Notes under the pieces: model-generated | What the model was told of the DNA's origin: nothing | Seen by the model: only the letters and a program-made list of their open reading frames with translations | Database searches by the model: none | Shown: positions 263-14,216 of the stretch, piece after piece | Layout of the letters: each line of letters begins with the position of its first letter | How positions within the stretch are numbered: the first letter of the stretch is position 1 | Made by a program: the position numbers and the translations under genes | Virus genome (UHGV): UHGV-1885740 | Reading direction: 5' to 3' (one strand) | Length of the DNA: 14,785 bases | From: a virus

Positions 263-305
263 CTTTATACTGTTAACACTGAACTAATGCATAGGAGTTA
301 AAACC

Positions 306-551: not shown

Positions 552-626
552 GCTGTTTTTTCGGTGGTCCTGGTAGCAGGGCCATCTATAAAGATAGTTT
601 ATCAACACAATGAAAGGAGAAAGTAC

Positions 627-980: not shown

Positions 981-1167
981 TTTCGAAAAAATTGTAAAGC
1001 GATCTCATGATTCCGAAGAGTTGCCGGAACGCCGCCAGCGCAACAATAAACTGAATAAGCCAAAAAGATTTGGGAAGATCTGGCGGAATCATTATGATCG
1101 TAAATTACCTGGCCTGCTTTTGGAACGTGAACGACAGGCGGAACGGTACCGCCATAAAGACAAATAA
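970..1167 (+). CDS. hypothetical basic protein (65 aa)
   Basis: ORF-track frame 946-1167 begins at TTG; ATG at 970 follows AAGGGGGA (956-963); overlaps the stop of the upstream gene; followed by a terminator. Confidence 0.55.
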   Translation: MKINFEKIVKRSHDSEELPERRQRNNKLNKPKRFGKIWRNHYDRKLPGLLLERERQAERYRHKDK

Positions 1168-1175
1168 CAACCAAC

Positions 1176-1204
1176 GCCCCGCCATTGTGCGGGGCTTTTT
1201 ATTT
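1176..1204 (+). terminator. intrinsic terminator
   Basis: Stem GCCCCGC/GCGGGGC with loop CATTGT followed by TTTTTATTT, 9 nt after the stop at 1167. Confidence 0.8.
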
Positions 1205-1337
1205 CTATCCTACGAATAGCGCCCCTGGTTGGCCCCACAAACGCCACAAAAGCCCCTACCTATGCAATCCCCTTTATTGACCTGAAAACATCACCCAGGG
1301 CCGTTTTATGGTGTTAAAAATATCTTTTATTTAAAGC

Positions 1338-1366
1338 TTGACACCTTGGAATCGCCTGGATATACT
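1338..1366 (+). promoter_or_regulatory. sigma70-like promoter (TTGACA-17-TATACT)
   Basis: TTGACA 1338-1343, 17-nt spacer, TATACT 1361-1366, AT-rich upstream; precedes the Shine-Dalgarno site and ATG at 1402. Confidence 0.75.
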
Positions 1367-1401
1367 AACCACATCAAAGCAAGAAGGAAGGAGTAAACGC
1401 C

Positions 1402-1752
1402 ATGCGTAAATTAAAAAATTTTGATAAAGTCGATGTTGTCCTGAATAATTTTTACTACTGCAATAATAAGGCCGTTTGGTGGCGTGATAGTTCCACCGAT
1501 AAAGTTAAAGCTCGCTTTCTCCAAGGGCACTGGCAAGGCCGTCCAGTGATTAAAATCCTGGGGCAATTGGTAGCGTTTAAAAATTGCCGCCGTGTTGATG
1601 ACGTTGAAGAGATTCTAAACATTTTACGCCACAATAATTTAAAAAAAATAGTGTTGACAAGTAAGTCTCAACAAGTATACTTAAGCACACAGGCGGGAAA
1701 ACTTCCAGCCACTAACAAAGAAAATAGGAGAAAATATCATGACCACCGTTAA
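1402..1752 (+). CDS. hypothetical protein (116 aa)
   Basis: ATG with AAGGAAGGAG upstream; ORF track; 3' end overlaps the next gene start by 14 nt. Confidence 0.7.
   Translation: MRKLKNFDKVDVVLNNFYYCNNKAVWWRDSSTDKVKARFLQGHWQGRPVIKILGQLVAFKNCRRVDDVEEILNILRHNNLKKIVLTSKSQQVYLSTQAGKLPATNKENRRKYHDHR
1654..1681 (+). promoter_or_regulatory. sigma70-like promoter (TTGACA-16-TATACT) with A-tract upstream
   Basis: TTGACA 1654-1659 and TATACT 1676-1681, preceded by AATAATTTAAAAAAAATA; lies inside the 3' end of CDS 1402-1752. Confidence 0.7.
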
Positions 1753-2362
1753 CATTACTACAGGTTACAATTTATCTTTCGACGTGCTGACCGACGAACA
1801 AAAAGAAAAAGCTGTTGAAATGGTCCGCGAAAGAGAAGAACACAGCGGGGATAACTTTTTTGCAGAAAGTGTAATTGAATACTATAAAGAATATGTTTTT
1901 CCAGAGTACGGGCTTGAAGATACCAAGGTACAGTGGTCCGGCTTTTGGTGTCAAGGCGACGGCGCATCAATTAGCGCTGAAAATGTAAACTTAGAAAAAT
2001 TCTTGCGTAAGGTTAAAGCGCTTACAAAATTTCGCTCAATTAGACACTTGTTCGGCACAATGCACGATGGCGAACTATCAGCCAGCGTTGAACGTATCCC
2101 GTTTAGCCATTATCATCACGAAAACACAATAGGCGGGTGCATCGATACCAACTGGCTAGACCTGACCACCAAGCAAGAGGATAAAGTTGAAGAGCTGGAA
2201 GAGCTGATCACCGAGACGGTACGGGAGCTATCCCGCAAGGTTTACGTAGACCTGGAGCAGGCCTATCTTGAACAATTCACTACCGAAAACCTGATCGGCC
2301 TTATCGAGGCCAATGATTGGCGGTTTGATGTGGATGAGTATGGCGAGATGACTTTTTCATAA
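1739..2362 (+). CDS. hypothetical acidic protein (207 aa; largest gene in the window)
   Basis: ATG with TAGGAG (1725-1730) 8 nt upstream; ORF track; E/D-rich C-terminal half; no family recognised by eye. Confidence 0.8.
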   Translation: MTTVNITTGYNLSFDVLTDEQKEKAVEMVREREEHSGDNFFAESVIEYYKEYVFPEYGLEDTKVQWSGFWCQGDGASISAENVNLEKFLRKVKALTKFRSIRHLFGTMHDGELSASVERIPFSHYHHENTIGGCIDTNWLDLTTKQEDKVEELEELITETVRELSRKVYVDLEQAYLEQFTTENLIGLIEANDWRFDVDEYGEMTFS

Positions 2363-2370
2363 ATAAAGTG

Positions 2371-2398
2371 TTGCAATAACCTAAAAACCTGCTATATT
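2371..2398 (+). promoter_or_regulatory. sigma70-like promoter (TTGCAA-16-TATATT)
   Basis: TTGCAA 2371-2376, TATATT 2393-2398; followed by a GC hairpin at 2408-2426, then AAGAGG and ATG at 2452. Confidence 0.65.
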
Positions 2399-2451
2399 AA
2401 AACTCAAGGGGCAAGACGTTTGCCCCCACACAAAACAAAGAGGAAAACATC

Positions 2452-2832
2452 ATGAAAAACACTACTAAAGCTATTGACACCGTTATGTTTAACCTGGTTA
2501 CCTTTCGCGAGGATATGAAAGATCTTCCACGTGAAACAGTGTGCGATCACATTGAAAACTATCGCAAACTAATCAAAGAGTTGCCTTTAAAACGTGACCA
2601 GTATGCGGCTAACGCCATGCTTAATGCCATGATCAAAAAGATGATTCAGTGTGATTTAACTCTGGCCTATGACTATGCGGGTGGTCGTTTTGCAGTATAC
2701 AATCAGCCCGTGCCCGGTATGGGCACCACCGAAGAATTGCACGCGCTCAATCTAAAACAAGACGTATGGGATAACATGCCCCGCGTGGTGGTGTGGGCAG
2801 AAAGCGGAAAGATTTACGGCGATAATTTTTAA
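2452..2832 (+). CDS. hypothetical protein (126 aa)
   Basis: ATG with AAAGAGG 2437-2443; ORF track. Confidence 0.8.
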   Translation: MKNTTKAIDTVMFNLVTFREDMKDLPRETVCDHIENYRKLIKELPLKRDQYAANAMLNAMIKKMIQCDLTLAYDYAGGRFAVYNQPVPGMGTTEELHALNLKQDVWDNMPRVVVWAESGKIYGDNF

Positions 2833-2841
2833 TCAGGTAAC

Positions 2842-2867
2842 AGGCGGCATATTTGCCGCCTTATTGT
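2842..2867 (+). terminator. probable intrinsic terminator (weak U-tract)
   Basis: Stem AGGCGGC/GCCGCCT with loop ATATTT followed by TATTGTT; 10 nt after the stop at 2832. Confidence 0.5.
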
Positions 2868-2896
2868 TAAACAGAACTGCAAAAGAGGTACATAGA

Positions 2897-3268
2897 ATGG
2901 AATTTATTATTTTGGCTGTAGTAGTTGCCTTGTTCAACGCCTGGATCGCTGGCAAGATGGGTAGATCCGCCTTTTTATGGTTTATTATATCTATTTTCCT
3001 GGGGGTGGTTGCAACTATTGTACTTGTTATCCTTGCAATTGTTGACAAGGGGAATAATAGAAAGGGTAAAGTATTTTCAGACCTGTACGACGCTCAAACG
3101 TTTGTCAACGCCTATTATAGTGATCTTCCAGTCTCCCTACGCTGCAGCCTGGCACAACAAGTTTTCGATGAGGCTAAAACCAGAGATCAAGCCCATGAGA
3201 TATGTTTAACTGAGGCGGATCGCCTATTTGAGAGGAATAGAAAATATGTGGGCCAACCGTTTAAATAA
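2897..3268 (+). CDS. hypothetical membrane protein (123 aa, two N-terminal transmembrane helices)
   Basis: ORF-track frame 2864-3268 begins at TTG; ATG at 2897 has AAGAGG (2883-2888) 8 nt upstream; helices IILAVVVALFNAWIA and FLWFIISIFLGVVATIVLVILAIV. Confidence 0.7.
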   Translation: MEFIILAVVVALFNAWIAGKMGRSAFLWFIISIFLGVVATIVLVILAIVDKGNNRKGKVFSDLYDAQTFVNAYYSDLPVSLRCSLAQQVFDEAKTRDQAHEICLTEADRLFERNRKYVGQPFK

Positions 3269-3491
3269 TGCCACGTTAATTAATCCCTTTAGTGAAGATT
3301 TGAAGCCAGCCGCCTGGCGTGATGGATTCAATAACGAACGCTTTATTTTCAAGCCTGATCTTGAGGAATTTTATAACAATGGATCGAACAACAGCGGAGA
3401 TAATTTTTCTTGGGATGTGCGTGGTGATGGTACTCCTGGGGGCCATTGTAGATCGCGTCACTACTACCAGAAGGAAAGGGGGAGACGATGA
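3246..3491 (+). CDS. hypothetical protein (81 aa)
   Basis: ORF-track frame 3228-3491 begins at TTG; ATG at 3246 follows GAGAGGAA; its stop overlaps the next ATG as ATGA (3488-3491). Confidence 0.5.
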   Translation: MWANRLNNATLINPFSEDLKPAAWRDGFNNERFIFKPDLEEFYNNGSNNSGDNFSWDVRGDGTPGGHCRSRHYYQKERGRR

Positions 3492-3607
3492 CAACCAAGG
3501 ATAAGCCATGCACCGATAAGGTGCGCCGCGTTATGGTATGGCTTGAGATTATCGCCCTTGAAATATTGCTAGGCGTAGGGATGTACTTTATCGCTGTAAG
3601 TAACTAA
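3488..3607 (+). CDS. small membrane peptide (39 aa, MTTKDKPCTDKVRRVMVWLEIIALEILLGVGMYFIAVSN)
   Basis: Below the ORF-track size cutoff; ATG preceded by purine-rich AAGGAAAGGGGGAG; ATGA overlap with the upstream stop; terminator follows 5 nt after its stop. Confidence 0.45.
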   Translation: MTTKDKPCTDKVRRVMVWLEIIALEILLGVGMYFIAVSN

Positions 3608-3611
3608 GAAC

Positions 3612-3640
3612 GGCCCCCGATCATGGGGGCCTATCTTTTA
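3612..3640 (+). terminator. intrinsic terminator (A11 run follows, possibly bidirectional)
   Basis: Stem GGCCCCC/GGGGGCC with loop GATCAT, then TATCTTTT and AAAAAAAAAAA (3640-3651). Confidence 0.75.
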
Positions 3641-3665
3641 AAAAAAAAAAATTACTTCCGGGGTG

Positions 3666-3694
3666 TTGCAATCCGGTCCGGAATGTGGATAATA
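3666..3694 (+). promoter_or_regulatory. sigma70-like promoter (TTGCAA-17-ATAATA)
   Basis: TTGCAA 3666-3671, ATAATA 3689-3694; 5' hairpin GGGGA/TCCCC at 3704-3718; AAAGGAG before ATG at 3750. Confidence 0.7.
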
Positions 3695-3749
3695 ACAATC
3701 AACGGGGAGCTAATCCCCACCACCACAAAAACCAGAAAGGAGAAACAAA

Positions 3750-3950
3750 ATGAGCAACAATATCCGCGTTATTAACTTCAAAAAAGAAGAAAAAATTGCC
3801 GTGCTGATTGACGGTCAAGAAATCTTCAAGGGCGACTATGAAGATCATCAAACGGCGATTAGTATCACTCGCGTGATTGGTTACCATAATTTTTACCCTC
3901 AAGGCGCTGAGGCAGCAGTAAAACGAATTAAGGAGATTGTAGGCCTGTAA
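3750..3950 (+). CDS. hypothetical protein (66 aa)
   Basis: ATG with AAAGGAG 3736-3742; ORF track. Confidence 0.75.
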   Translation: MSNNIRVINFKKEEKIAVLIDGQEIFKGDYEDHQTAISITRVIGYHNFYPQGAEAAVKRIKEIVGL

Positions 3951-3952
3951 AA

Positions 3953-3997
3953 TTTATTTTTAGATGGCCTTGACTCCAGGGCCATCAATAAAGTAAA
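3953..3997 (+). repeat. 45-bp direct repeat, copy 2 (promoter-like; TTGACT 3970-3975)
   Basis: Identical to 218-262; starts 3 nt after the stop at 3950; upstream of CDS 4042-4341. Confidence 0.8.
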
Positions 3998-4041
3998 TTT
4001 AAACCCTGTTAAAATAATCAGTGCAAAAAGGAGTAATGATC

Positions 4042-4341
4042 ATGTTTATCCAGGCTAATAATCTTTATTTCTTTGATGGTCAGATCGTAGACGGCGTGGA
4101 GGTGGAAATCACCGGGTGCCCTGGCGGTCAGGTTATGACTTTTCGGAATAATGCCTTTGATGATTCTCATATCGTTATGAGAATGGAAGTTAGTAAGCTG
4201 GATGACAAGAAAACACTTATCGACTATTCCGTCAAAGATCATCCAGACTACCACATGATCTATGGTGATTTGTGCATTGTTGACCGTGACAAGGTGGGCG
4301 GCATTGTGATCGCTATTGTGAACGATGTTTTCTCAAACTAA
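4042..4341 (+). CDS. hypothetical protein (99 aa)
   Basis: ORF-track frame 4021-4341 begins at GTG; AGGAG 4029-4033 gives an 8-nt spacing to the ATG at 4042 (the ATG at 4036 is only 2 nt away). Confidence 0.7.
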   Translation: MFIQANNLYFFDGQIVDGVEVEITGCPGGQVMTFRNNAFDDSHIVMRMEVSKLDDKKTLIDYSVKDHPDYHMIYGDLCIVDRDKVGGIVIAIVNDVFSN

Positions 4342-4358
4342 TTTCAGCAGGTGATTTT

Positions 4359-4439
4359 ATGAAAGTAAAACTATATTACCTTAATGAGCTTAACCCCCTT
4401 GCCCAGGTCCGCGCCCTGGCAGGGCCTGCAGCGATATAA
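4359..4439 (+). CDS. possible short ORF (26 aa, MKVKLYYLNELNPLAQVRALAGPAAI)
   Basis: ATG 5 nt after AGGTGA; ends 6 nt before a strong terminator; contains a CAGGGCC palindrome; could be a leader peptide or non-coding. Confidence 0.25.
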   Translation: MKVKLYYLNELNPLAQVRALAGPAAI

Positions 4440-4445
4440 TCACAT

Positions 4446-4479
4446 AAAGGCTATGCGGTTGCATAGCCTTTATTATTTT
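4446..4479 (+). terminator. intrinsic terminator
   Basis: 11-bp stem AAAGGCTATGC/GCATAGCCTTT with loop GGTT, followed by ATTATTTT. Confidence 0.8.
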
Positions 4480-4526
4480 AGCGTTACAGCGGCCCCAAGG
4501 CGCTTAAAAAATTTTTAAAGAAGTAC

Positions 4527-4555
4527 TTGCATCAAGTCCTACAATATGGATAATA
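4527..4555 (+). promoter_or_regulatory. sigma70-like promoter (TTGCAT-17-ATAATA) with AT-rich upstream element
   Basis: TTGCAT 4527-4532, ATAATA 4550-4555, upstream AAAAAATTTTTAAAG; 5' GC hairpin at 4566-4579; TAGGAG before ATG at 4612. Confidence 0.7.
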
Positions 4556-4611
4556 GGACGTGTCAGGGGGGCGGCCCCCAATCATTAACCGGATAGATAG
4601 GAGTTAAAATC

Positions 4612-4896
4612 ATGGCTATTGTCACCGTTGGCGATGTAGTGGAAATGGAAGCAAAATACTTAAAAGCGGGTATGCATATCCTACGGAATGATCAAGAATT
4701 GTTATTAACGATGGTAGACTATAATCCCGGCCAGGATTATCCAAGCATCGACTACTTTTTTGAGTATGTTGATGAAGAATTGAAAGAGGATGAGGCTTAT
4801 CAGGGTGAATTCTGCAATTTCTTTTGCCCTGATGAGGTTGTAAAAGTTATCTATCAACCTGGCGTACCTTTCCCGCTGCACGCTATCAATAAATAA
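4612..4896 (+). CDS. hypothetical acidic protein (94 aa)
   Basis: ATG with TAGGAG 4598-4603; ORF track. Confidence 0.8.
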   Translation: MAIVTVGDVVEMEAKYLKAGMHILRNDQELLLTMVDYNPGQDYPSIDYFFEYVDEELKEDEAYQGEFCNFFCPDEVVKVIYQPGVPFPLHAINK

Positions 4897-4950
4897 ACCT
4901 GGCGGGGCCGAAAAGGCCCCAATTATGAAAATAAAGAGAGGTAAATCATC

Positions 4951-5184
4951 ATGATGGAACAAATTAAACGCGCTGAGGCTATTAATGGCAATGTGATCTA
5001 TTTTGTCAGCAAAAACGAAAAAGGCGTACCATATGCGGCGGTAATAGTACAACCTGACGGCGATTATTGGTTTACTGTATACGGATCTTATTCTTTTGGG
5101 CGTCCAGTGCATGATAAAATTTTGAAAGTAGCGAACCCTACCGGGAAAAATATCACAGCAGAAAAATTTTTTGAAAATAGTTGA
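4951..5184 (+). CDS. hypothetical protein (77 aa)
   Basis: ATG with AGAGAGG upstream; ORF track; its TGA stop (5182-5184) sits inside the -35 hexamer of the next promoter. Confidence 0.75.
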   Translation: MMEQIKRAEAINGNVIYFVSKNEKGVPYAAVIVQPDGDYWFTVYGSYSFGRPVHDKILKVANPTGKNITAEKFFENS

Positions 5185-5209
5185 CATGACCATATAAGAC
5201 TGTAGTATA
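5181..5209 (+). promoter_or_regulatory. sigma70-like promoter (TTGACA, -10 TAGTAT/AGTATA)
   Basis: TTGACA 5181-5186, -10 around 5203-5209; 5' hairpin GGGGC/GCCCC at 5220-5234; AAGAGG before ATG at 5261. Confidence 0.65.
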
Positions 5210-5260
5210 TAAATCAAAGGGGGCAACAAGCCCCACCAACCACAAAGAGGATAAAAAATC

Positions 5261-5440
5261 ATGGCTATTATTGCAAAGACTGAGATCGTAGGCTTAGATT
5301 CTATTCTTCTCGCATATGAGGAAGCTATAGAAATGTATGTGGTTTCCTATGGTGAATATATCCGTGAATATAAATCTATTGATCTAGCTTTTGAATGTTA
5401 TATTCGCCAGGTCAATAAAGCATATGATGATTATCGTTAA
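5261..5440 (+). CDS. hypothetical protein (59 aa)
   Basis: Below the ORF-track cutoff; ATG with AAAGAGG 8 nt upstream; own promoter and 5' hairpin; ordinary codon usage. Confidence 0.65.
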   Translation: MAIIAKTEIVGLDSILLAYEEAIEMYVVSYGEYIREYKSIDLAFECYIRQVNKAYDDYR

Positions 5441-5446
5441 AATAGT

Positions 5447-5474
5447 TTGACAACAGTCAACAATCTGGTAAAGT
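5447..5474 (+). promoter_or_regulatory. sigma70-like promoter (TTGACA-16-TAAAGT)
   Basis: TTGACA 5447-5452; -10 TAAAGT 5469-5474; 5' hairpin GCGGGAA/TTCCCGC at 5487-5503; GAGGG before ATG at 5523. Confidence 0.6.
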
Positions 5475-5522
5475 GTACTACATAGCGCGGGAATACTTCC
5501 CGCCATTAATGAGGGTAGAATC

Positions 5523-5627
5523 ATGTTAGATAAAATTTTCACGGTTGTAGTAGTTGGCCTGGCATTATCGGTTGGAGTGGTTGCAACTATGGCTAACATG
5601 ATCCTATCTTCCCATGGTATCGGTTAA
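5523..5627 (+). CDS. small hydrophobic peptide (34 aa, MLDKIFTVVVVGLALSVGVVATMANMILSSHGIG)
   Basis: Not in the ORF track (too short); has its own promoter, 5' hairpin and GAGGG 7 nt upstream; a single predicted transmembrane helix. Confidence 0.5.
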   Translation: MLDKIFTVVVVGLALSVGVVATMANMILSSHGIG

Positions 5628-5637
5628 GGTGAATCAA

Positions 5638-5853
5638 ATGATCACGAATAAGACAGGTAAAACGGAATTCTTGCGAGGCTTGCAGATCGGCAAGCCAGAG
5701 ATCTGGCATTGCACTAAAACACCACGTGACGAAATGAAAGACTTCACCGCCACGCTGCAACGGGTAAAGATATCCATCACGCAGAAAAAGGCCTTGATAG
5801 TGGTGGAAGGTGAGATCCCGCAAACCGTTGTTATAGTTGAGCGTACAGCATAG
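5638..5853 (+). CDS. hypothetical protein (71 aa)
   Basis: ORF-track frame 5614-5853; ATG at 5638 is 5 nt after AAGGTGA (5626-5632), whereas the ATG at 5614 has no Shine-Dalgarno site. Confidence 0.6.
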   Translation: MITNKTGKTEFLRGLQIGKPEIWHCTKTPRDEMKDFTATLQRVKISITQKKALIVVEGEIPQTVVIVERTA

Positions 5854-5944
5854 TTTAATTTATAGCGATACCTGAAAATTAACCAATAAATCATAAACAG
5901 GCGGTTACCGCCGCCTTAAACGTAGCAGAAAGAGGCTAGACACA

Positions 5945-6229
5945 ATGAAAAAGATGATCGCAGTAGTTGCCCTGGTTGTTGGACTTAATGCGCCTGTAAT
6001 GGCTAAAGAGCTGGCAAAAGAGGTTAATCTAACGGATATCCATGCCGTCAATCAAATCGGGGTTACTTATCGCTTATGCCTTGCCGCTAAAACTTTTAAT
6101 GACGGCACAACAGAGTACTACGGATTCGAGGGTATCCGGTGCGGTGAGCTTGCTCGCGACCTTAAGGAAGATCCAGACCTGGAAGATCTGCCCATCACCG
6201 TAAACGGTAAAGCTTACGTAAACCGTTAA
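5945..6229 (+). CDS. hypothetical secreted/periplasmic protein (94 aa, N-terminal signal peptide)
   Basis: MKKMIAVVALVVGLNAPVMA followed by KE looks like a Sec signal peptide with an AxA-type cleavage site; no lipobox cysteine; AAAGAGG upstream. Confidence 0.75.
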   Translation: MKKMIAVVALVVGLNAPVMAKELAKEVNLTDIHAVNQIGVTYRLCLAAKTFNDGTTEYYGFEGIRCGELARDLKEDPDLEDLPITVNGKAYVNR

Positions 6230-6231
6230 CC

Positions 6232-6366
6232 ATGAGAAAGATAATCATCACCTTGGGGATTGTGGCTGGATCGCTGGCGCTCTTTCCCCTTATGGTTAGG
6301 TATGTGCTAATCAGTATTGTCCTGGTAGTCAGTGATCTATTGGGAACGGTTGGCACCTTGTTTTAA
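6232..6366 (+). CDS. small membrane protein (44 aa, two hydrophobic segments)
   Basis: ATG 2 nt after the upstream stop, no obvious Shine-Dalgarno site (coupling assumed); MRKIIITLGIVAGSLALFPLMVRYVLISIVLVVSDLLGTVGTLF. Confidence 0.4.
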   Translation: MRKIIITLGIVAGSLALFPLMVRYVLISIVLVVSDLLGTVGTLF

Positions 6367-6377
6367 AGAGCGATAAA

Positions 6378-6569
6378 ATGAATATCGAACAAGTTAGAAA
6401 GGTATTGGCGGTACTGCGTTATCATAATCATAGAAAGGTTATAGACGATCCTGATTATGTTGATTCAAGTCTGGAAGGGGATACACTGCAAGCCATAAGC
6501 AACATGCAAGAATTGCTCAAGCGCATGACAGAGAAAAACCGACCGGACTACATAGGCGAAAAAATATAA
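6378..6569 (+). CDS. hypothetical protein (63 aa)
   Basis: ATG with AAAGAG upstream; ORF track; terminator 17 nt downstream. Confidence 0.65.
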   Translation: MNIEQVRKVLAVLRYHNHRKVIDDPDYVDSSLEGDTLQAISNMQELLKRMTEKNRPDYIGEKI

Positions 6570-6585
6570 TCCTTATAAACTACAA

Positions 6586-6614
6586 AACAGGGCTTGCAAT
6601 GGTCCTGTTTTTTG
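6586..6614 (+). terminator. intrinsic terminator
   Basis: Stem AACAGGG/TCCTGTT with loop CTTGCAATGG followed by a T6 run. Confidence 0.7.
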
Positions 6615-6697
6615 TTATACTTGTTTCACGGCAGGCACCTGGCGACGGGTGGAGACAATCACCGGGCCTGCCTGTCATATAAGAACTATAAAAACCG

Positions 6698-6726
6698 TTG
6701 ACATCTGCCATGGGGTGGGGTAACAT
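6698..6726 (+). promoter_or_regulatory. sigma70-like promoter (TTGACA-17-TAACAT)
   Basis: TTGACA 6698-6703, TAACAT 6721-6726; 5' hairpin GGGCA/TGCCC at 6738-6751; CAGGAGAGAGG before ATG at 6781. Confidence 0.7.
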
Positions 6727-6780
6727 TTATCTTGAAGGGGCAAAAGTGCCCACACAATAACCAGGAGAGAGGAAAACACT

Positions 6781-7053
6781 ATGTCAAGCTGGATTAATCA
6801 AGAAGTCGAATCACGTTTTAATGCTATTTGGGATCTCATCGAAAAAGAAGACGGCACATCAAGCCCCTACCTCAACAATTTGGAATTCCATTTTGTGGAA
6901 GCGATGAACGCAGAACATGATCACGAAGGTGGCGCGGATGAGTTCGCTAAAGGTTATGGCTTTAACAATGCCAACGAAATGATCGAGGCGGTCGTACTCC
7001 AGGCTGAGGAAGATTATCAATTAAAAACACTTGAATTCTGCCGCCATAAGTAA
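6781..7053 (+). CDS. hypothetical acidic protein (90 aa)
   Basis: ATG with a purine-rich Shine-Dalgarno site; ORF track. Confidence 0.8.
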   Translation: MSSWINQEVESRFNAIWDLIEKEDGTSSPYLNNLEFHFVEAMNAEHDHEGGADEFAKGYGFNNANEMIEAVVLQAEEDYQLKTLEFCRHK

Positions 7054-7059
7054 TAAGAT
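7031..7059 (+). promoter_or_regulatory. sigma70-like promoter (TTGAAT-17-TAAGAT), overlapping the 3' end of CDS 6781-7053
   Basis: TTGAAT 7031-7036, TAAGAT 7054-7059; 5' hairpin GGGCC/GGCCC at 7068-7081; AGAGAGAAAG before ATG at 7114. Confidence 0.55.
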
Positions 7060-7113
7060 AATGACACGGGCCAAAAGGCCCACTAATCAGAACCACACAA
7101 AGAGAGAAAGAAA

Positions 7114-7332
7114 ATGACAACCCGTAAAATTAAAGTTGTTTGCATTGAATCGACTGGGGGCGCTTTTGTAGTTGGTCAGGAATATAATGCGGTTTTAATG
7201 GGTACGGATTGGAAGGTTAAAGGCCTTAATGGTTACGAGTACGGCACTACTTGCGGCTTGCGTGGTCGAATCGGATACGTGAGTTTAGACAATAAAGAAA
7301 AATTTGTTTTCGACACCGTTGTGAGTAAATAG
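7114..7332 (+). CDS. hypothetical protein (72 aa)
   Basis: ATG with a purine-rich Shine-Dalgarno site; ORF track. Confidence 0.75.
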   Translation: MTTRKIKVVCIESTGGAFVVGQEYNAVLMGTDWKVKGLNGYEYGTTCGLRGRIGYVSLDNKEKFVFDTVVSK

Positions 7333-7409
7333 CATGAATTGCTAAAGACTGATCTGCGAACTGCTGTATTATCAACTAATCAAAACGAACCACATAAAGA
7401 GGAAACATC

Positions 7410-7672
7410 ATGAAACGTCTGGATCAGCTTAAATTAGTTCAGTACATGGCCTACAGAATTCTTGAAGTCCAGAAAGGTAGCAAAAAAGAGGTTTGCGAGA
7501 AAGCTTATAAGATCTTCACTCGTAAAAAGATGATTGGATGTTACGCCAGACCAAAAAGGCTGACATCTTGGGGTACCTGGAAGAAGAGATCCGCCTTGAA
7601 GAGCAAGAAGAGATCCGCCGTAGTGAGGCAGATTATCAGGCAGCTTGGGAAAACTGGATGAGCAACAAATAA
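7410..7672 (+). CDS. hypothetical protein with an apparent frame change (frame 0 from 7410; -1 frame from about 7526 to TAA 7670-7672)
   Basis: The ORF-track frame (7410-7661) turns K/R-rich with rare AGA/AGG codons after about 7530, while the -1 frame reads DILGYLEEEIRLEEQEEIRRSEADYQAAWENWMSNK with ordinary codons. A T-AAA-AAG motif sits at 7523-7529, and a 15-bp direct repeat lies at 7581-7595 and 7606-7620. Alternatively two genes, the second starting at ATG 7538. Confidence 0.5.
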
Positions 7673-7691
7673 TACAACAAGGTGCACGGTC

Positions 7692-7717
7692 AGGGGCTTA
7701 AAGCCCCTTTCTTTTTG
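7692..7717 (+). terminator. intrinsic terminator closing the rightward gene module
   Basis: Stem AGGGGC/GCCCCT with loop TTAA followed by TTCTTTTTG. Confidence 0.8.
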
Positions 7718-8322
7718 TCTCCTCTTTTCCTACCACAAATGGCCCCGCCTGGCAAATGGAATAATCAACAAGCCAGCAATTAACCCCACTGTACAAACAT
7801 ACATATAAAATAACTATTGCATAATTTTTCATTGTGTGGTAGCAGGGCCATTTTTACACGTTTTTCCTTCCAAAATTGCACGTAATGCAGCATTTGCACA
7901 AAATTTAACCTGATGCATATCTTCAATAGCTTGTCAACAACTAAAAATTCTTATAAGTCATACACTTACATAACTACAAAAGCGTTTTCTACGTGAAAAA
8001 TCGAGTATAACTATAGCCGCCAGATCTCAGAATTTACGTACGCTCGCCATTCTATAGCCTGCTAAGCATTTATTCCAACCATAGAATAACGGAATAGTCA
8101 ATACCTGCATAAAATAATTATTCGTGTAAACTGCATAACATAAATCGGCCCAAGTGTCAACATTTTTCGTAAACAGTCTGGAATTGTCACGTTAGGTTAC
8201 CATAAGCAGAGAAATCTTTAGTCGTCTAATGTTTACTGTACGTTACTATACTAACTGGAATCATTAGATGACTAATAGAAAGATAAGAAATAATTAACAA
8301 TACAATTATTCTATCTGTAACA

Positions 8323-8593
8323 ATAAGGCAACTATGCAAACGAATGGCATGGCGCGACGGAGTCGCGACATAATATAAAAGCAGTAACCATCACCCCCGT
8401 GATAGTTTGTCTGCAATCTATTAATCAGATCATAGTTGCCTTGTATTCAGTTAATCATGACATAACAAGCAAGGCAACTATAGATCTGCTAATAGTTGCC
8501 CTGCTTTTATATTATGTCATGCTAATTATAATCAGTGCGATTATTGTCATGTATAATTATTGTCATGCAAACGAATGGCATGGCTTATCATTT
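8323..8593. repeat. nested inverted/direct repeat element (about 270 bp)
   Basis: AAGGCAACTAT at 8325-8335 and 8471-8481, with inverted copies at 8432-8442 and 8492-8501; 18-bp direct repeat TGCAAACGAATGGCATGG at 8335-8352 and 8566-8583; 18-bp perfect inverted repeat 8367-8384 / 8501-8518; palindrome CGCGAC-GGA-GTCGCG around 8354-8368. Confidence 0.8.
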
Positions 8594-8610
8594 TTGAGTA
8601 AATAATCTAT

Positions 8611-8716
8611 ACGTTAACAGTAAGCTATGTAAACTATTGGGAATGTAAACAGTAAAGGTCATGAACAGTAAGCGAGCGAATAGTAATAGCGTGAATAGTG
8701 ACAGCGTAAACAGTCA
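8611..8716 (+). repeat. tandem iteron-like array (about 7 units, 15-16 bp period, core GTAAACAGT / GAAYAGT)
   Basis: Cores at 8614, 8629, 8645, 8661, 8677, 8692 and 8706; further isolated copies in both orientations at about 8169, 8843, 8989 and 9719. Confidence 0.75.
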
Positions 8717-9298
8717 TGCATGTCAATTATGTTCAGTGTGTTTAATGTGCTTAAAGTGTCATATTATGTCAGACAAGTTTTTCTCCTCTTTGTCAAGTGC
8801 TGCATGAAAAATTTACAAGCTTGTATGGTAGCATTTTTGCGGCCCTGTTTACATTCAGTGTTGTATGTATAATCCTTGTTGTGTGGGCGTTTAGACGTCT
8901 GGACGGTCAGAAGTCTGCAGGTCAATATCTAATCTATTGGCTGCTAACTATATCCCCCCACAAATAATAAGAAATATAATTGTTATGTGCGTAAACAGTA
9001 ACCTATGTTATCAATCCCTGTATGTATCGCCAGTGGTGCGCATAATGGGTATTATGTTAAATTGCCCGTAATGATAAAGATTCTCACAATGATAGGTATT
9101 CTCATTCACCCTCACAAAATAGATTGCAAATGTTGTGCCACTGTGTGAACGGCCTCACCTATTAATTTGCCTCACTGCCTCGATATTTGAGAATTATTAT
9201 AAGAATGAGAAGTATTCCCATTCCGTCCGCCTGGCAGCACTCCAGTCGCTACCGCTCATGACAGGGCAGAACTGGGCCCATTCAGATATTTCTGACTG

Positions 9299-9567
9299 AC
9301 TCTTCAGGTCTGTGTGGGAAAAGACAACCTCTCCGGCGGGACAGGGGGATATCTGAGGAGAAATTGCAGGTCAATTAAAAAATTTACGTGGTGTATGAAG
9401 CGATCTTCAGGCAAGGTATGTATTATGGGATGAAACCCTCTTCAGGCAATGATATTTGTGGGTGTGATATTTGCTGGAAAGCCAGATATGACGGGACTCC
9501 CGGCGGGGCAGGGGTAGTACAGACAGGGAAAATATGGGGATGTAGTTGGGTAAATTGATCAGGCAGG
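9299..9567 (+). repeat. cluster of CTCTTCAGG-family motifs plus a GC-rich direct repeat CCGGCGGG(R)CAGGGG
   Basis: CTCTTCAGG at 9300-9308 and 9438-9446 (also 9850-9858 and 10500-10508); GATCTTCAGG 9402-9411; GATCAGGCAGG 9557-9567; CTCCGGCGGGACAGGGGG 9331-9348 against CTCCCGGCGGGGCAGGGG 9497-9514. Confidence 0.7.
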
Positions 9568-10210
9568 TAGAGTATGGAATATGTTACAGGTATGTTAAAT
9601 AGGGAGGCTGAATATCTGTAGGATTTGTGTGTAAAATCAAAGACTTAAGTGGTGTTGCGGTATTTTCTATAAATAATTCAAGTTTAATAGGTAATATTTG
9701 TCTCTATTCGCTTTGTGTGGTAAACAGATTCAGATGAGATTGGTTTACAAGTGTATACATAATATACAAATTAAAGATACAAGAAACCCCCTCCCCCTTC
9801 GGCTACCATTCACCTTTTCCTCTGACTGGTACTTAAACACTTATTCAGACTCTTCAGGTTATCACCCATATATCATATGGCAGTGACTGGTGTCCTCCGG
9901 CCCCTCTTTCGTCACCCGTCCGCTTCGCCATGCTAATGCCATAGCCAATGGTTCGGTTGTTCACCCTGTTCACTCAGGTGTATCTCCATACCCCTTCAAA
10001 CCGAAGAGAACAGAAAACCCGAATTACTCGGTAAAAGAAAAGAGAAGAACTTAATTTTATCAGGATAGGCAAGAATGTCAAGGCATGACTGCTCACTAAA
10101 CAAGCAAACAGTCATGTGTGGAAGGTAAGTGATTGTGGTGGTGGGAAATTTAGTTGAAAGATGTGTTATAGGTGCGCTTCCAGCACTTTGGCCGGGCAGC
10201 TAATTGTGCG

Positions 10211-10426
10211 TCAGTCCAGCGGTTCATCCTCTACTTCACTGAAATCAATGTTCATGGTCTCTTCCCAACCATCGATCTCAGCACAAGAGTGGAGTTCTTT
10301 AGGGTTTACTCCCAAAGCCTCAGCAACAGAGTCTATATTTAACACCTCTGGCAGGTATGATTCATCGAATTCAAGGTAAATCAGGCCACGAGTGTTGTCA
10401 GCTCCACCAAATATTTCTATCTTCAT
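10211..10426 (-). CDS. hypothetical acidic protein (71 aa)
   Basis: ATG with GAGGAG 5 nt upstream; ORF track; the overlapping plus-strand ORF is S/T-rich antisense. Confidence 0.65.
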   Translation of the reverse strand: MKIEIFGGADNTRGLIYLEFDESYLPEVLNIDSVAEALGVNPKELHSCAEIDGWEETMNIDFSEVEDEPLD

Positions 10427-10547
10427 AAAATCTCCTCTGGAAATGAGAGTGTGAACAGGGTTTTATACGTCCCAATGCACAGGAATTATGCACGTTTGCC
10501 TCTTCAGGCCATGCTTTAGCATGAGGAACCTGTGTGGGCTCGGTGCT

Positions 10548-10787
10548 TCATAGTCTACCACCTCTGAACTCTTCGTGCTCAGGCATAATAGAGAACCAGA
10601 TATCTACGATGTCTTCCCACGTTAGGTCATCAGCCTCAGGATCTACCTGGAGCGAAGATGGAGAATCTTCAGAATCTAAGTTTTCCTCTTTCACTGGCTC
10701 AGCCAAGGGACATATAGTCACTCCTTTGGATGTCTCTTCAGATGCATGTGTGTGTTGATCATGTTCCACCCGTGAGTATTCCGGCAA
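10548..10787 (-). CDS. hypothetical acidic protein (79 aa as drawn; start uncertain)
   Basis: ORF-track frame begins at TTG with no Shine-Dalgarno site and overlaps the small ORF 10759-10860 by 29 nt in another frame; acidic C-terminal region resembles that of 10211-10426. Confidence 0.4.
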   Translation of the reverse strand: MPEYSRVEHDQHTHASEETSKGVTICPLAEPVKEENLDSEDSPSSLQVDPEADDLTWEDIVDIWFSIMPEHEEFRGGRL

Positions 10788-10860
10788 CAGCTGCTATGGA
10801 CGTAATGATCATCAGGATCACCACCAAAACCTCTGACAATGTTTTCATTGTGTATCCCAT
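10759..10860 (-). CDS. small hydrophobic peptide (33 aa, MGYTMKTLSEVLVVILMIITSIAAVAGILTGGT)
   Basis: ATG directly downstream of a strong minus-strand promoter (TTGACA-17-TAATAT); GGAG 3 nt upstream; below the ORF-track cutoff. Confidence 0.45.
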   Translation of the reverse strand: MGYTMKTLSEVLVVILMIITSIAAVAGILTGGT

Positions 10861-10880
10861 ATTCTCCAAATGATGTGTGG

Positions 10881-10909
10881 ATATTATCACTGGAGCGGTA
10901 ATGTGTCAA
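10881..10909 (-). promoter_or_regulatory. sigma70-like promoter on the minus strand (TTGACA-17-TAATAT)
   Basis: Reverse complement of 10904-10909 is TTGACA and of 10881-10886 is TAATAT, with a 17-nt spacer; it is the first promoter downstream of the minus-strand terminator at 11066-11097. Confidence 0.65.
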
Positions 10910-11065
10910 CAGAAACGCCGCGAGGGTTTGGTTAAAATCCGAGCGTATGGTGATTTGGGTCAAAACGGACGTGCGTTCTCGCTACGCTCGAAATATGGAG
11001 TTGTTTGTAGGGAGCTCTTAAACGCTCTGTAATGAGATTAACTGCCCAAGGTATGCAATCGTGCA

Positions 11066-11097
11066 CCAGATAAAGAAAAGGACGCCACAGAGCGTCC
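11066..11097 (-). terminator. intrinsic terminator (minus strand)
   Basis: Stem GGACGC/GCGTCC (11080-11085 / 11092-11097) followed on the minus strand by CTTTTCTTTATCT; 26 nt after the stop of CDS 11123-11422. Confidence 0.7.
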
Positions 11098-11122
11098 TAG
11101 GTGTCTTAAATTTGATATTTTG

Positions 11123-11422
11123 CTATACCCACGAGGGCTTATCAAGGTTGGAGTAGCTGAAAGGTGTCAAAAGGTGACTGTCAAAATCTCTCAAACTATC
11201 CAAATCTTTTTCCTCGTCCTGACACCATCTGTGCCTACATTTGTTGTTGTAGTGCATGGAATGCATAGCGTTCTGCAACTTAACAGGCACAAGTGATTCA
11301 GGAGTAGATAGTATTGTTGGGTATGCCAGAACCACCTCAAACAGTGGAAACACATCGAAACTAAAGTCTACCTCTGCAGAGGTTGATGGCATGTAGGAGT
11401 ATTTAGCCGCCTTTGTAGACAT
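11123..11422 (-). CDS. hypothetical protein (99 aa)
   Basis: ORF-track frame 11123-11434 begins at GTG; ATG at 11422 follows GAGGTGG; closely follows the upstream gene. Confidence 0.65.
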   Translation of the reverse strand: MSTKAAKYSYMPSTSAEVDFSFDVFPLFEVVLAYPTILSTPESLVPVKLQNAMHSMHYNNKCRHRWCQDEEKDLDSLRDFDSHLLTPFSYSNLDKPSWV

Positions 11423-11430
11423 AATCCACC

Positions 11431-11763
11431 TCACACAGGTTTGATAATACCTTCACCGAATAGCTCTTCGTATCTAATCTTGTCCGGATCCCACTCCTGG
11501 ATAATTTCGAAGACAATATCCAACCCAGGAACAATCACTTCTCCAGTGTCAAGCTTAGCAAGAACAAAACCGGAAGGTTGAATGGTTTCCCAGTTACGGC
11601 GATCAGAATAAAATACTTCGAAAATATCACCAACCTCAATCCGTTTCTGTTGCTCAAGATGCTCAAGGTTCTCTTTCATACGGATGCAGCGTATTTTTCG
11701 TGCAGGCCATAGACCACCTGCATCACGTTCATTCAATTCTTTTACAGTGATCGGTATACCCAT
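11431..11763 (-). CDS. hypothetical protein (110 aa)
   Basis: ATG with AAGGAG 7 nt upstream; ORF track. Confidence 0.75.
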   Translation of the reverse strand: MGIPITVKELNERDAGGLWPARKIRCIRMKENLEHLEQQKRIEVGDIFEVFYSDRRNWETIQPSGFVLAKLDTGEVIVPGLDIVFEIIQEWDPDKIRYEELFGEGIIKPV

Positions 11764-11790
11764 CTCAAATCTCCTTCATAGATAGTAAAA

Positions 11791-11810
11791 AGAGGGGCCC
11801 AAGCCCCTCT
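11791..11810 (-). terminator. GC hairpin, possible terminator or attenuator between leftward genes
   Basis: Palindrome AGAGGGGC-CCAA-GCCCCTCT; on the minus strand it is followed by TTTTAC, then the Shine-Dalgarno site of the next gene only about 15 nt away. Confidence 0.5.
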
Positions 11811-11818
11811 CTTTGTCA

Positions 11819-12124
11819 TTATTCTACAGAGCGTTTGAACAGAATGTCTGCCTCGGACATGTGCTCAACCTCTTCTTCGATTTTAGCTCGACGTTTTTCA
11901 GCCTCATAGCGAATATCGAACTCGGTAGCCACCAAAGATTTGATGAATTTAGGAGAATACAGGTGATCCTGCTTCTCAACGAGAATGATATCCTTAATGG
12001 CATCTTTCAGATCTTTAATCTGAAGTTGGAGTTCCACCAGTTCTTCGATTGTCTTGCGAAGGCGATCACGCTCTGCAGTGTCAGAAGGAAGAGAGGTGAA
12101 CAGTTCAACTTTAGATTTAGCCAT
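11819..12124 (-). CDS. hypothetical charged, probably helical protein (101 aa)
   Basis: ATG with AAGGAG 9 nt upstream; ORF track; heptad-like E/K/L-rich sequence. Confidence 0.75.
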   Translation of the reverse strand: MAKSKVELFTSLPSDTAERDRLRKTIEELVELQLQIKDLKDAIKDIILVEKQDHLYSPKFIKSLVATEFDIRYEAEKRRAKIEEEVEHMSEADILFKRSVE

Positions 12125-12152
12125 AGTAAGAGTCTCCTTATGTTGTTTTAAA

Positions 12153-12404
12153 TTAACGTTCTACAAAAATACCGTTCAGTTCAATAACCAGGAATTTCTG
12201 GTCTTCACTGTCGTCTCGTGCCAGCACCTCACAGACGTATCGGTCATCTCCATCATCATCGCAGTCAAATACAAGACTGAGGACTTTATCATGATAAACC
12301 TTCGCCACTACCGCCTCGTAAGTATTGCCGATTGTGAATCCAAGATAATCTCCGATGCATTTGACAACAACATGGTCTCCAGCATTCAAGTCAATCTTCG
12401 TCAT
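12153..12404 (-). CDS. hypothetical acidic protein (83 aa)
   Basis: ORF-track frame 12153-12470 begins at TTG; ATG at 12404 follows AAGGGG; contains a DCDDDGDD acidic patch. Confidence 0.7.
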   Translation of the reverse strand: MTKIDLNAGDHVVVKCIGDYLGFTIGNTYEAVVAKVYHDKVLSLVFDCDDDGDDRYVCEVLARDDSEDQKFLVIELNGIFVER

Positions 12405-12550
12405 TACTGCGCCCCTTGGGTAATAATACTGTATGTAAAACTTTAACCAGAGATGTGAATAACGCCCCAAAACACACCGATAGCGCTAAAACAGACAAGG
12501 CCATCATTAAAGCTTCAGTAAAATCAGTCACTCCTCACCTCTTGTTAGTC

Positions 12551-12579
12551 ACTATACTGTCATTTATCTTTGCCGTCAA
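12551..12579 (-). promoter_or_regulatory. sigma70-like promoter on the minus strand (TTGACG-17-TATAGT)
   Basis: Reverse complement of 12574-12579 is TTGACG and of 12551-12556 is TATAGT; overlaps the 3' end of CDS 12560-12823; about 140-nt leader before ATG at 12404. Confidence 0.6.
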
Positions 12580-12823
12580 GAACTTTTTTAAATCTTTCAG
12601 GGATATCGCCTGTTCTTAGATAGCTCATGACCTCACAAGGTTCCCACTTGAATTTCTTACAAAGCAGGGCGGCTGAGATTGTTTCATTGCGAAAAGAAAG
12701 GATATTAATATCCCATTCTGAGAACCCCAACTTCCGAAGGGTAGCTACAGAAATCCTCACCGCAACCCAGCAGCAAAAACATGCAACAAACGCCACTGCT
12801 ATAACCCACATCAGGATGTTCAT
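12560..12823 (-). CDS. hypothetical membrane-anchored protein (87 aa, N-terminal transmembrane helix)
   Basis: ATG with GAGGTG 5 nt upstream; N-terminal WVIAVAFVACFCCWVAV; ORF track. Confidence 0.65.
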   Translation of the reverse strand: MNILMWVIAVAFVACFCCWVAVRISVATLRKLGFSEWDINILSFRNETISAALLCKKFKWEPCEVMSYLRTGDIPERFKKVLDGKDK

Positions 12824-12832
12824 ACAAGCACC

Positions 12833-12916
12833 TCACTGAAATACAAGACACAGTGTTAAGGTTACAGACCAGCAAATAATTAACAGTGCCGTTGCAACCT
12901 TGGCAAGATTTATCAT
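12833..12916 (-). CDS. small hydrophobic peptide (27 aa, MINLAKVATALLIICWSVTLTLCLVFQ)
   Basis: ATGA overlap with the stop of CDS 12913-13200; AGAGG 4 nt upstream; its stop overlaps the Shine-Dalgarno site of the next gene. Confidence 0.4.
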   Translation of the reverse strand: MINLAKVATALLIICWSVTLTLCLVFQ

Positions 12917-13200
12917 AGTGCCTCTAAGATTTCATATCCTTCGGGTCGGAATACAAGCCACTCCGTGGCTCCGTTTGGTCGATACGCTTTATACAGAACA
13001 ACCTGATCTCGGCACATGCACATAGCTACATAGTTTTCATCCACGCCTGCAGCCTGCATTGCAGCTTCTTCTCCGGCAACTGCTTTGCTTACAACCTCCT
13101 TAGTAGGCAGGTGTGCGATCAGCTCGTCACCATCATTAATTCCAAAATGGCTGAGTTCTCCATTGGTATCTTTAATCTTAATCTTAACCAGATCTTTCAT
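12913..13200 (-). CDS. hypothetical acidic protein (95 aa), member of a paralogous family
   Basis: ATG with GGAGGAAGA upstream; TAATG overlap with the upstream gene; N-terminus KIKIKD...DGDELIAHLP resembles 13880-14137. Confidence 0.75.
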   Translation of the reverse strand: MKDLVKIKIKDTNGELSHFGINDGDELIAHLPTKEVVSKAVAGEEAAMQAAGVDENYVAMCMCRDQVVLYKAYRPNGATEWLVFRPEGYEILEAL

Positions 13201-13529
13201 TAGTCTTCCTCCAGGTTCAAAGGACCTAAGATTTCATATGCCAGATTAGAAGTTACCAGAGGGTCTTCTGCATCTTTAGTATTATACCACCCGTGAATAA
13301 CCAGAGTCCCACTCTGTTTCATATCTAACTGGAACTGTTCTGCAGTTTCCTCATCCATCTCTAAGATCTCCATAAGGTACTTGATGTCAGGAAGGTATGC
13401 AGCTGTTACAGTTCCCTCTACCAGACCTTCGGGCCAACCTACATCCGGATGACAAGTAGGAACCAGATTGGTCAGCTTAATGGTGTACGCTTTTTCTGCA
13501 CGAGCCTTCAGTAACTGGTCAATCTTCAT
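13200..13529 (-). CDS. hypothetical acidic protein (109 aa)
   Basis: ATG with AGGAGGA upstream; TAATG overlap with the upstream gene; ORF track. Confidence 0.75.
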   Translation of the reverse strand: MKIDQLLKARAEKAYTIKLTNLVPTCHPDVGWPEGLVEGTVTAAYLPDIKYLMEILEMDEETAEQFQLDMKQSGTLVIHGWYNTKDAEDPLVTSNLAYEILGPLNLEED

Positions 13530-13879
13530 TATTCGTCCTCCTCTTCGGTGCCTGCTTCCAGTAATAAGTTAAGAATATCTTCTGCACAAGGCTCATAGAA
13601 CTCTTGGCCTTCATTATCGATGATTTTGTAGTCATCTCCGCGAATAATCAGAGGATCACTCTCAAAATTATCGAGACCTTTAACAACGACAACACGATCG
13701 ATTGCCATCATTGTAAGAACTTTATCGACATCTTTCTCTGCTACACCATACTGCAGCAGAATGTCTTTGGTAGGAGGAACAGCATCCACCACAACACCGT
13801 TACCAAAACCTTCCGGTAAGTTAGCTAAAATATCTTCCGGAACCACACTAACATCAAAACCAGTAATTTCTACTTTCAT
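13529..13879 (-). CDS. hypothetical acidic protein (116 aa), paralogous family
   Basis: ATG with GAGGTG upstream, immediately after the upstream stop; shares DIL..NLP...GFGN with 13880-14137. Confidence 0.75.
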   Translation of the reverse strand: MKVEITGFDVSVVPEDILANLPEGFGNGVVVDAVPPTKDILLQYGVAEKDVDKVLTMMAIDRVVVVKGLDNFESDPLIIRGDDYKIIDNEGQEFYEPCAEDILNLLLEAGTEEEDE

Positions 13880-14137
13880 TTACAGCACCTCTTCGTCAGC
13901 TACTTCATAAAAATGGCCTGGGATTGCAATAGCGTTCTCACCTTCACCTACAAACACAGTTCCGTCAAGAATCAACATCATAAGAGCTTCTGGAATATCC
14001 TCTTCCTGAACGTTGCCAAAACCTTTAATCAGCTCGTAGGTTGGAAGATTTACCTCTAAGATGTCACCATCTTTAGAGCGGAAATCAACACCATCCTGAA
14101 TCTCTGCCATTTCAAGGTTTTTCAGTTTAATCTTCAT
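13880..14137 (-). CDS. hypothetical acidic protein (85 aa), paralogous family
   Basis: ORF-track frame 13880-14140 begins at TTG; ATG at 14137 is 7 nt after GGGAGA; first gene after the promoter/operator at 14169-14208. Confidence 0.7.
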   Translation of the reverse strand: MKIKLKNLEMAEIQDGVDFRSKDGDILEVNLPTYELIKGFGNVQEEDIPEALMMLILDGTVFVGEGENAIAIPGHFYEVADEEVL

Positions 14138-14168
14138 CAATCAGTCTCCCGTCTTGTTAAGATGAAGG

Positions 14169-14208
14169 TATTATTTCACACAGGGTTGGTGTTGTCAACA
14201 CCTGTGTG
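14169..14208 (-). promoter_or_regulatory. sigma70-like promoter (TTGACA-18-ATAATA) embedded in a palindrome (candidate operator)
   Basis: Reverse complement of 14193-14198 is TTGACA and of 14169-14174 is ATAATA; inverted repeat CACACAGG (14177-14184) / CCTGTGTG (14201-14208) with inner TGTTG-T-CAACA overlapping the -35. Confidence 0.6.
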
Positions 14209-14216
14209 CAAGAAAA

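Follow-up and report, generated by a model that had tools for sequence, protein, structure and literature searches.

The apparent −1 frameshift gene at positions 7410-7672 of the window, that is, of the whole 14,785-nucleotide stretch of DNA analyzed here, is very probably an indel allele of a single gene, and not a case of programmed recoding or of two genes. In nucleotide alignments, the junction between the two frames reads CGT-AAA-AAG-AT (five A residues, A5) in the window and CGT-AAA-AAA-GAT (A6) in its relatives, and this is the sole difference from phage APECc02 in the gene. An earlier sequence-only reading had listed an indel in the A-run among its explanations and had named the alignment of orthologues both as a check and as a possible refutation. 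That alignment favors the indel: all intact orthologues carry an additional A at precisely this site, and it fuses the two frames into one continuous frame. The alignment of 13 intact orthologues is gap-free across ...FTRKKDDWMLRQ... (...TRKKDDWMLRQ...), and the most divergent orthologue, that of Septuagintavirus A54, reads HKADDW at the site and so lacks the A6 tract.

With a 44-nt megablast probe, the A5 version matched 0 of 50,697 phage records and the A6 version 44. A pattern permitting 4-8 nt at the tract recovered A6 in three of three metagenome contigs; the A5 pattern had no match in the metagenome contig collection, from which the window's own contig is evidently absent. Neither pattern matched in the IMG/VR viral contigs, which hence do not discriminate between the two versions, and a pattern scan of GTDB genome contigs gave no match.

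The features of the locus are as follows.

7410..7529, + strand: codons 1-40 of the gp160-family gene in frame 0, MKRLDQLKLVQYMAYRILEVQKGSKKEVCEKAYKIFTRKK; residues 1-40 align at 100% identity in tblastn with the ime and APECc02 proteins.
7482..7487, + strand: first A6 tract, AGC-AAA-AAA-GAG, intact in the window; 1-nt deletions occur here in ERZ27237799, ERR7366388 and Alma.
7524..7528, + strand: second A tract, A5 in the window, A6 in all intact relatives and A7 in rV5_ev146 (from alignments and tract lengths).
7529..7672, + strand: codons 41-87 and stop of the gp160-family gene in the −1 frame, DDWMLRQTKK...WMSNK; tblastn aligns residues 40-87 with window 7526-7669 at 98-100% identity.
7530..7661, + strand: K/R/S-rich out-of-frame tail of the 83-aa ORF, 43 codons and TGA, with mostly non-synonymous variation in its own frame.
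7538..7672, + strand: 44-aa ORF from ATG 7538, the internal Met44 of the 87-aa protein (from the ORF listing).
7581-7604 and 7605-7628, + strand: 24-nt in-frame tandem duplication, EEEIRLEE / QEEIRRSE, with copies 79% identical.
7692..7718, + strand: intrinsic terminator-like hairpin AGGGGCTTAAAGCCCCT followed by TTCTTTTTGT (T-tract); the Gotham and Alma annotations have a terminator in the same position.

The two-frame layout described in the earlier reading can be followed directly in the sequence: the frame opened by ATG 7410 is sensible for 40 codons and then turns K/R/S-rich with AGA and AGG codons, the −1 frame ends at 7672, and AAA-AAG is present at 7524-7529. A GAGG Shine-Dalgarno core at 7399-7402 (+) lies 7 nt 5' of ATG 7410 and is kept in the aligned relatives. 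The resulting ORF of 83 codons extends from ATG 7410 to TGA 7659-7661; past codon 40 (AAG 7527-7529), it reads MIGCYARPKRLTSWGTWKKRSALKSKKRSAVVRQIIRQLGKTG, a K/R/S-rich string in which AGA or AGG makes up 6 of 43 codons. The −1 frame is open from 7526, after TAA 7523-7525, and reads DDWMLRQTKKADILGYLEEEIRLEEQEEIRRSEADYQAAWENWMSNK up to its stop, TAA 7670-7672. The frames meet at CGT-AAA-AAG (7521-7529), where AAA-AAG is preceded by T 7523.

The pattern of variation among relatives points to one protein. When 14 sequences were projected onto the intact frame, the fused frame held 40 synonymous and seven non-synonymous single-site variants. Codon position 3 accounts for 35 of the 45 variable sites, equally on both sides of the junction, and the pattern is reversed in the other two frames. 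These counts indicate that a single frame is under purifying selection across the junction, and the K/R/S-rich tail at 7530..7661 appears to be a by-product of the deletion that is not conserved as a protein.

Gene family and genomic neighborhood

By sequence similarity, we assign the window to Vequintavirus (rV5-like coliphage) DNA. As a whole it is ~94-96% identical to many rV5-like genomes, and the 700 nt around 7410-7672 have matches in 185 phage records, among them APECc02 at 99.9%. Positions 7410-7672 represent, on the same kind of evidence, one gene, a homologue of rV5 ORF165/gp160 (ABI79230.1) that belongs to PHROG 11701. A single 264-nt coding sequence (87 aa) is annotated at the syntenic position in APECc02, rV5, Gotham, JeffSchatz and ime, and a continuous 264-nt ORF with CGT-AAA-AAA-GAT is present in these phages and in three metagenome contigs. 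After repair of the frame, the 87-aa translation aligns with phrog_11701 along its whole length (positions 1-87 of 87, E = 1e-54) and, at 90% identity, belongs to a cluster with 156 member sequences. Only rV5-like phages carry the family: among its 26 clusters, the named ones trace to Vequintavirus phages, Septuagintavirus phages or E. coli assemblies.

rV5 gp160 (ABI79230.1) and APECc02 APCEc02_064 (AKO61818.1) are the same gene at the same syntenic position as the window copy. The repaired window gene is 100% identical to that of APECc02 in nucleotides, and its protein is 100% identical to those of both APECc02 and rV5. Unlike these two, the window copy is without one A in the second A6 tract and is thereby split into two frames. 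The family is marked by a single ORF of ~87 codons, which the window copy does not have, owing to the 1-nt deletion at 7524-7528; it is best classed, from its sequence, as a frameshifted allele of the PHROG 11701 family rather than an intact member. The gene order is common to APECc02, rV5, Gotham, JeffSchatz and ime, in which the gene follows a 90-aa gene, precedes a terminator and is the last in a rightward block of small genes. A 72-aa gene sits between the 90-aa gene and the gp160 homologue in some relatives.

The gene encodes a protein with few distinguishing features. Its C-terminal half is acidic, and an AlphaFold model of the 87-aa protein is all-helical (helices 3-20, 25-38, 43-46 and 50-86) with low confidence (pLDDT 64.5, pTM 0.43). 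A Pfam search of the 87-aa protein returned nothing above threshold, its sub-threshold hits being unrelated (E ≥ 0.018); PADLOC gave no match for it, a PDB sequence profile search nothing significant, and a Foldseek search of the model against the PDB no match with E < 5. The gp160/PHROG 11701 protein is hypothetical, with no function assigned in these searches, and its gene was already known. The name 'DNA translocase FtsK' given to APCEc02_064 is unsupported: the protein has only 87 aa, and the FtsK_SpoIIIE P-loop ATPase domain is absent in the Pfam search. This name has spread by annotation transfer, from APCEc02_064 (L001 1811-2074) to copies in ime, nimi, naswa and others.

The 24-nt duplication contains the 15-bp direct repeat pointed out in the sequence-only reading. 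The repeat is real and its first copy does start at 7581, but the second copy occupies 7605-7619 and not 7606-7620. The exact 15-nt repeat, AAGAAGAGATCCGCC, is the identical first 15 nt of each 24-nt copy, so that the spacing is 24 nt and in frame. By our own rough estimate (~341^2/2 position pairs / 4^15), such an exact 15-mer pair in 341 nt would arise by chance with a probability of ~5e-5. We take the repeat as ordinary repetition within coding sequence rather than as a product of chance.

The rightward gene block ends at the terminator-like hairpin at 7692-7718. Beyond it, between the rightward block (1-7672) and the leftward block (10214-14785), lies a ~2.4-kb region with few genes (7720-10150). 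Two repeats lie within this region: a perfect inverted one of 18 nt (8367-8384 / 8501-8518) and an exact direct one of 20 nt (8334 and 8565). The cumulative GC skew peaks near 10.5 kb. The Gotham genome ends, with its terminal repeat, ~1 kb downstream of the gp160 homologue; in rV5 and ime, the region matching 7720-10150 has an extra 139-aa gene (ORF164) that is absent from the window. Possible roles for the region are those of genome terminus, replication origin or control region for divergent transcription.

Other small genes of the rightward block also differ among relatives. At 4359-4427, the window retains only the first 21-23 codons of a 116-aa gene (APCEc02_056; present in ime and APECc02), the remainder being missing or replaced, which is a difference in gene content between the window and its closest relatives. 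Some rV5-like genomes (P0064-P0066) encode an 88-aa chimera of the N-terminal 54 residues of the gp171 homologue and the C-terminal half of a 63-aa protein (window 6378-6569). The two parts are joined at a shared YVD motif, which suggests that the intervening genes were deleted by recombination at short homology. The 50-codon ORF at 3623-3775, a homologue of APCEc02_053, contains a run of 12 A residues (3640-3651) that encodes KKKK and differs in ime; runs of this length are liable to slip during transcription or replication.

Origin of the missing A

The A may be missing from the phage DNA or only from its assembled sequence. It could well have been lost from the second of the two A6 tracts by a genuine slipped-strand deletion in the phage DNA, to which we give an even chance. 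The A5 allele would then be null or strongly hypomorphic, and its main product would consist of 40 native residues followed by the 43-residue out-of-frame basic tail. A spontaneous −1 slip of tRNA-Lys on A_AAG would rebuild the wild-type protein (...TRKK-DDW...); without stimulators, such slippage would be expected at about background, a few tenths of a percent or less. We infer a deletion present in the phage DNA itself and not arising in the reads, an allele without function and a gene that the phage can do without.

The chief competing explanation is a base-calling or assembly error, in which the consensus dropped one A of the homopolymer while the phage DNA itself carries A6 and encodes the 87-aa protein intact. 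It is a serious candidate, with a probability somewhat short of even. The A5 version with these flanks occurs in no curated phage genome, compared with 44 for A6, and the gene is otherwise 100% identical to that of APECc02. Against an error, the 83-aa frameshift product has been recorded both in the JGI contig of the window itself and in a Logan assembly of run SRR053015. The SRR053015 Logan contig is 100% identical to window 4757-8597, A5 included; it probably derives from the same reads as the window and so is not an independent sample, although a second assembler arriving at A5 implies that A5 k-mers were seen repeatedly. Literature searches on this run and on the rV5_ev phages gave no result. 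Three further read sets, ERR4563966, ERR14116098 and ERR4562514, likewise show A5 at this tract, against different backgrounds and with neighboring genes of normal length.

The remainder of the contig bears on the question in both directions. Among ~36 conserved genes in the window, the gp160 homologue is the only one that is cleanly split between frames, and the in-gene homopolymer runs of at least 6 nt (n = 12) show only one other anomaly, at 1641. Every other conserved gene is in a single frame, including at 11 of the 12 runs, and the run at 1641 alters only the last residues of its gene, which argues against a base-calling error. At 1641-1648, within ORF 1402-1752, the window has A8, where APECc02 and ime have A6; with 2 nt more, the homologue of an 86-aa gene loses its stop and becomes a 116-aa ORF that runs into the following gene. 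No phage record was matched by an A8 probe, for which low-complexity masking is possible, and 106 were matched by an A6 probe; a look-up of the 116-aa ORF, intended to trace the A8 allele elsewhere, gave no record. Two private frame-altering A-run anomalies in one contig are a pattern given by homopolymer-prone sequencing chemistries, and the second of them speaks for a read error at the first. The A7 allele of rV5_ev146 on an identical background does so too, as a tract miscalled or mutated both ways. The identity of the repaired gene to that of APECc02 means that there has been no decay after the frameshift, which fits a very recent mutation or an artifact alike. Taken together, we lean slightly, and only roughly, toward a real deletion over an artifact.

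Indel alleles in relatives and in a control gene

Disrupted or shortened alleles of this gene recur among rV5-like genomes and read sets, as follows.

Window contig/SRR053015, ERR4563966, ERR14116098 and ERR4562514: A5 in the second tract.
rV5_ev146: A7 in the second tract.
ERZ27237799, ERR7366388 and phage Alma: A5 in the first A6 tract.
MG065646: +2 (GC) insertion.
P0035: in-frame deletion between short direct repeats, exactly one 24-nt EEIR unit missing.
P0040: in-frame deletion between short direct repeats, 42 nt between two A6G runs missing.

In Alma, a +1 insertion 29 codons after the first-tract deletion restores the frame, leaving ~30 internal residues out of frame. At the protein level, deletion and frameshift alleles of the gp160 gene among relatives are represented by P0035, P0040, P0042 and P0043. 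rV5_ev146 (LR699804; VVG93943/VVG93942) has the same gene on an identical background and is broken at the same A tract as the window; it differs in having A7 (+1) and not A5 (−1), and its 41-aa and 44-aa ORFs are annotated as two 'Phage proteins', the 44-aa one by an automatic pipeline.

The disrupted alleles lie at varying distances from intact ones. The window, rV5_ev146 and MG065646 are each separated from the nearest intact sequence by 0 substitutions, ERR14116098 and ERZ27237799 by one, and ERR4563966 by four; in this small sample, the nearest intact sequence is 9-20 substitutions away for ERR4562514 (14), ERR7366388 and Alma. The A5 alleles differ from one another by at least five substitutions, and most of the indel events therefore look independent.

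A control gene behaves in a similar manner. The rV5 gp171 homologue (window 4612-4896) has one mid-gene T6 tract, and among ~385 member sequences its truncated alleles are of T5 type (P0067, five members) and T7 type (P0068, three members). Alleles with one nucleotide more or fewer amount to roughly 2% of distinct sequences per tract, similarly for the gp160 gene and the control. This similarity of per-tract rates points to generic homopolymer instability, or error, in small accessory genes, and selection against the gp160 gene in particular is rejected as the default reason for the recurrent frameshifts, given that the control gene shows the same.

A more elaborate account would make the two A6 tracts a reversible, contingency-like on/off switch for a gene that is costly in some hosts. 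We consider this very unlikely. The existence of A5, A6 and A7 alleles on identical or near-identical backgrounds, the at least seven apparently independent indel events in a 264-nt gene and the repaired alleles without further decay are what a switch would produce, but the T5- and T7-type alleles of the control gene (4612-4896), at a similar per-tract frequency, leave no locus-specific excess. In addition, six A residues are short for a contingency tract. The broader form of the idea, in which the paired A6 tracts and similar tracts in neighboring accessory genes are reversible ON/OFF switches and the OFF A5 allele is slightly leaky through the A_AAG −1 slip, is likewise improbable in our estimation. 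If a switch did operate, phage populations would hold in reserve null or weakly expressed versions of a gene with harmful effects on certain hosts, for example by triggering a defense system. Whatever their origin, the one-nucleotide alleles at A6 and T6 tracts in small Vequintavirus accessory genes (~2% per tract) matter to curators and to comparative studies.

Recoding, overlapping genes and known systems

The sequence-only reading had also offered programmed −1 frameshifting, in which slippage at U_AAA_AAG would serve to make the 87-aa protein in regulated amounts, as happens with dnaX and IS elements. This explanation falls away with the alignments, in which the orthologues are single-frame, the split layout is not conserved and A54 lacks the A-run, and we regard it as extremely improbable. 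A −1 slip on A_AAG would yield exactly the conserved protein, and no tetramer shifts more readily in E. coli than A_AAG (PMC4066793, Sharma et al. 2014). In the same study, however, Z_ZZN tetramers including A_AAG shifted at ~0.15% without a stimulator, compared with a background of 0.11%, and effective tetramers reached 0.26-5.6% only with a strong pseudoknot (PMC4066793). The heptamer itself conforms to X_XXY_YYZ at best in part: only the A_AAG tetramer can re-pair cognately, and U_AA cannot. Inspection of the 20 nt upstream of the slip site found no Shine-Dalgarno-like GGAG or AGGA. A hairpin is predicted to start 6 nt downstream, as a stimulator might, but its fold (−19.5 kcal/mol, z = −1.39) is no better than shuffled sequence, 20 of 200 shuffles being as good, and its arms differ in Gotham. 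No RNA genes came up in the window with Rfam or with a tRNA scan.

Two separate overlapping genes, an 83-aa one from ATG 7410 and a 44-aa one from ATG 7538, are scarcely credible: both ORFs exist and rV5_ev146 has a protein annotation for the 44-aa one, but that annotation stems from an A7 frameshift in this very gene, the 83-aa ORF varies mostly non-synonymously in its tail when read in its own frame, and ATG 7538, which has no recognizable Shine-Dalgarno sequence before it, is an internal Met of the conserved 87-aa protein. The earlier reading was thus right that the second start lacks a Shine-Dalgarno site, and its suggestion of overlapping genes is not borne out, as this ATG is Met44 of a protein whose single frame appears to be under purifying selection.

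With an indel allele of one gene as the preferred reading, the locus is best annotated as a disrupted gene or a possible sequencing error, and not as a recoding site or two genes. AAA-AAG at a frame junction is no evidence of programmed frameshifting when the orthologues have one more A. The biological weight of the case is small, as it concerns a frameshifted copy of an already known hypothetical phage gene at a classical A6 hot spot.

Comparison with established recoding sites bears this out. The window site shares with those of dnaX and IS3-IS911 (A_AAA_AAG with Shine-Dalgarno and hairpin or pseudoknot stimulators) an AAA-AAG read by tRNA-Lys, at which a −1 slip would join the frames. It differs from them in that its first base is U and not A, stimulators are lacking and the two-frame layout is absent in orthologues; unlike at those sites, the −1 efficiency expected here is near background.

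Another parallel is the rII region of phage T4, in which frameshift hot spots at A6 runs are accounted for by the slipped-strand model of Streisinger. The gp160 gene resembles it in its recurrent one-base gains and losses at runs of six A residues, and the T4 rII gene was dispensable under the conditions used. In contrast to the selected laboratory mutants of T4 rII, the gp160 indels are natural or assembly variants across genomes and are known as alleles rather than as rates.
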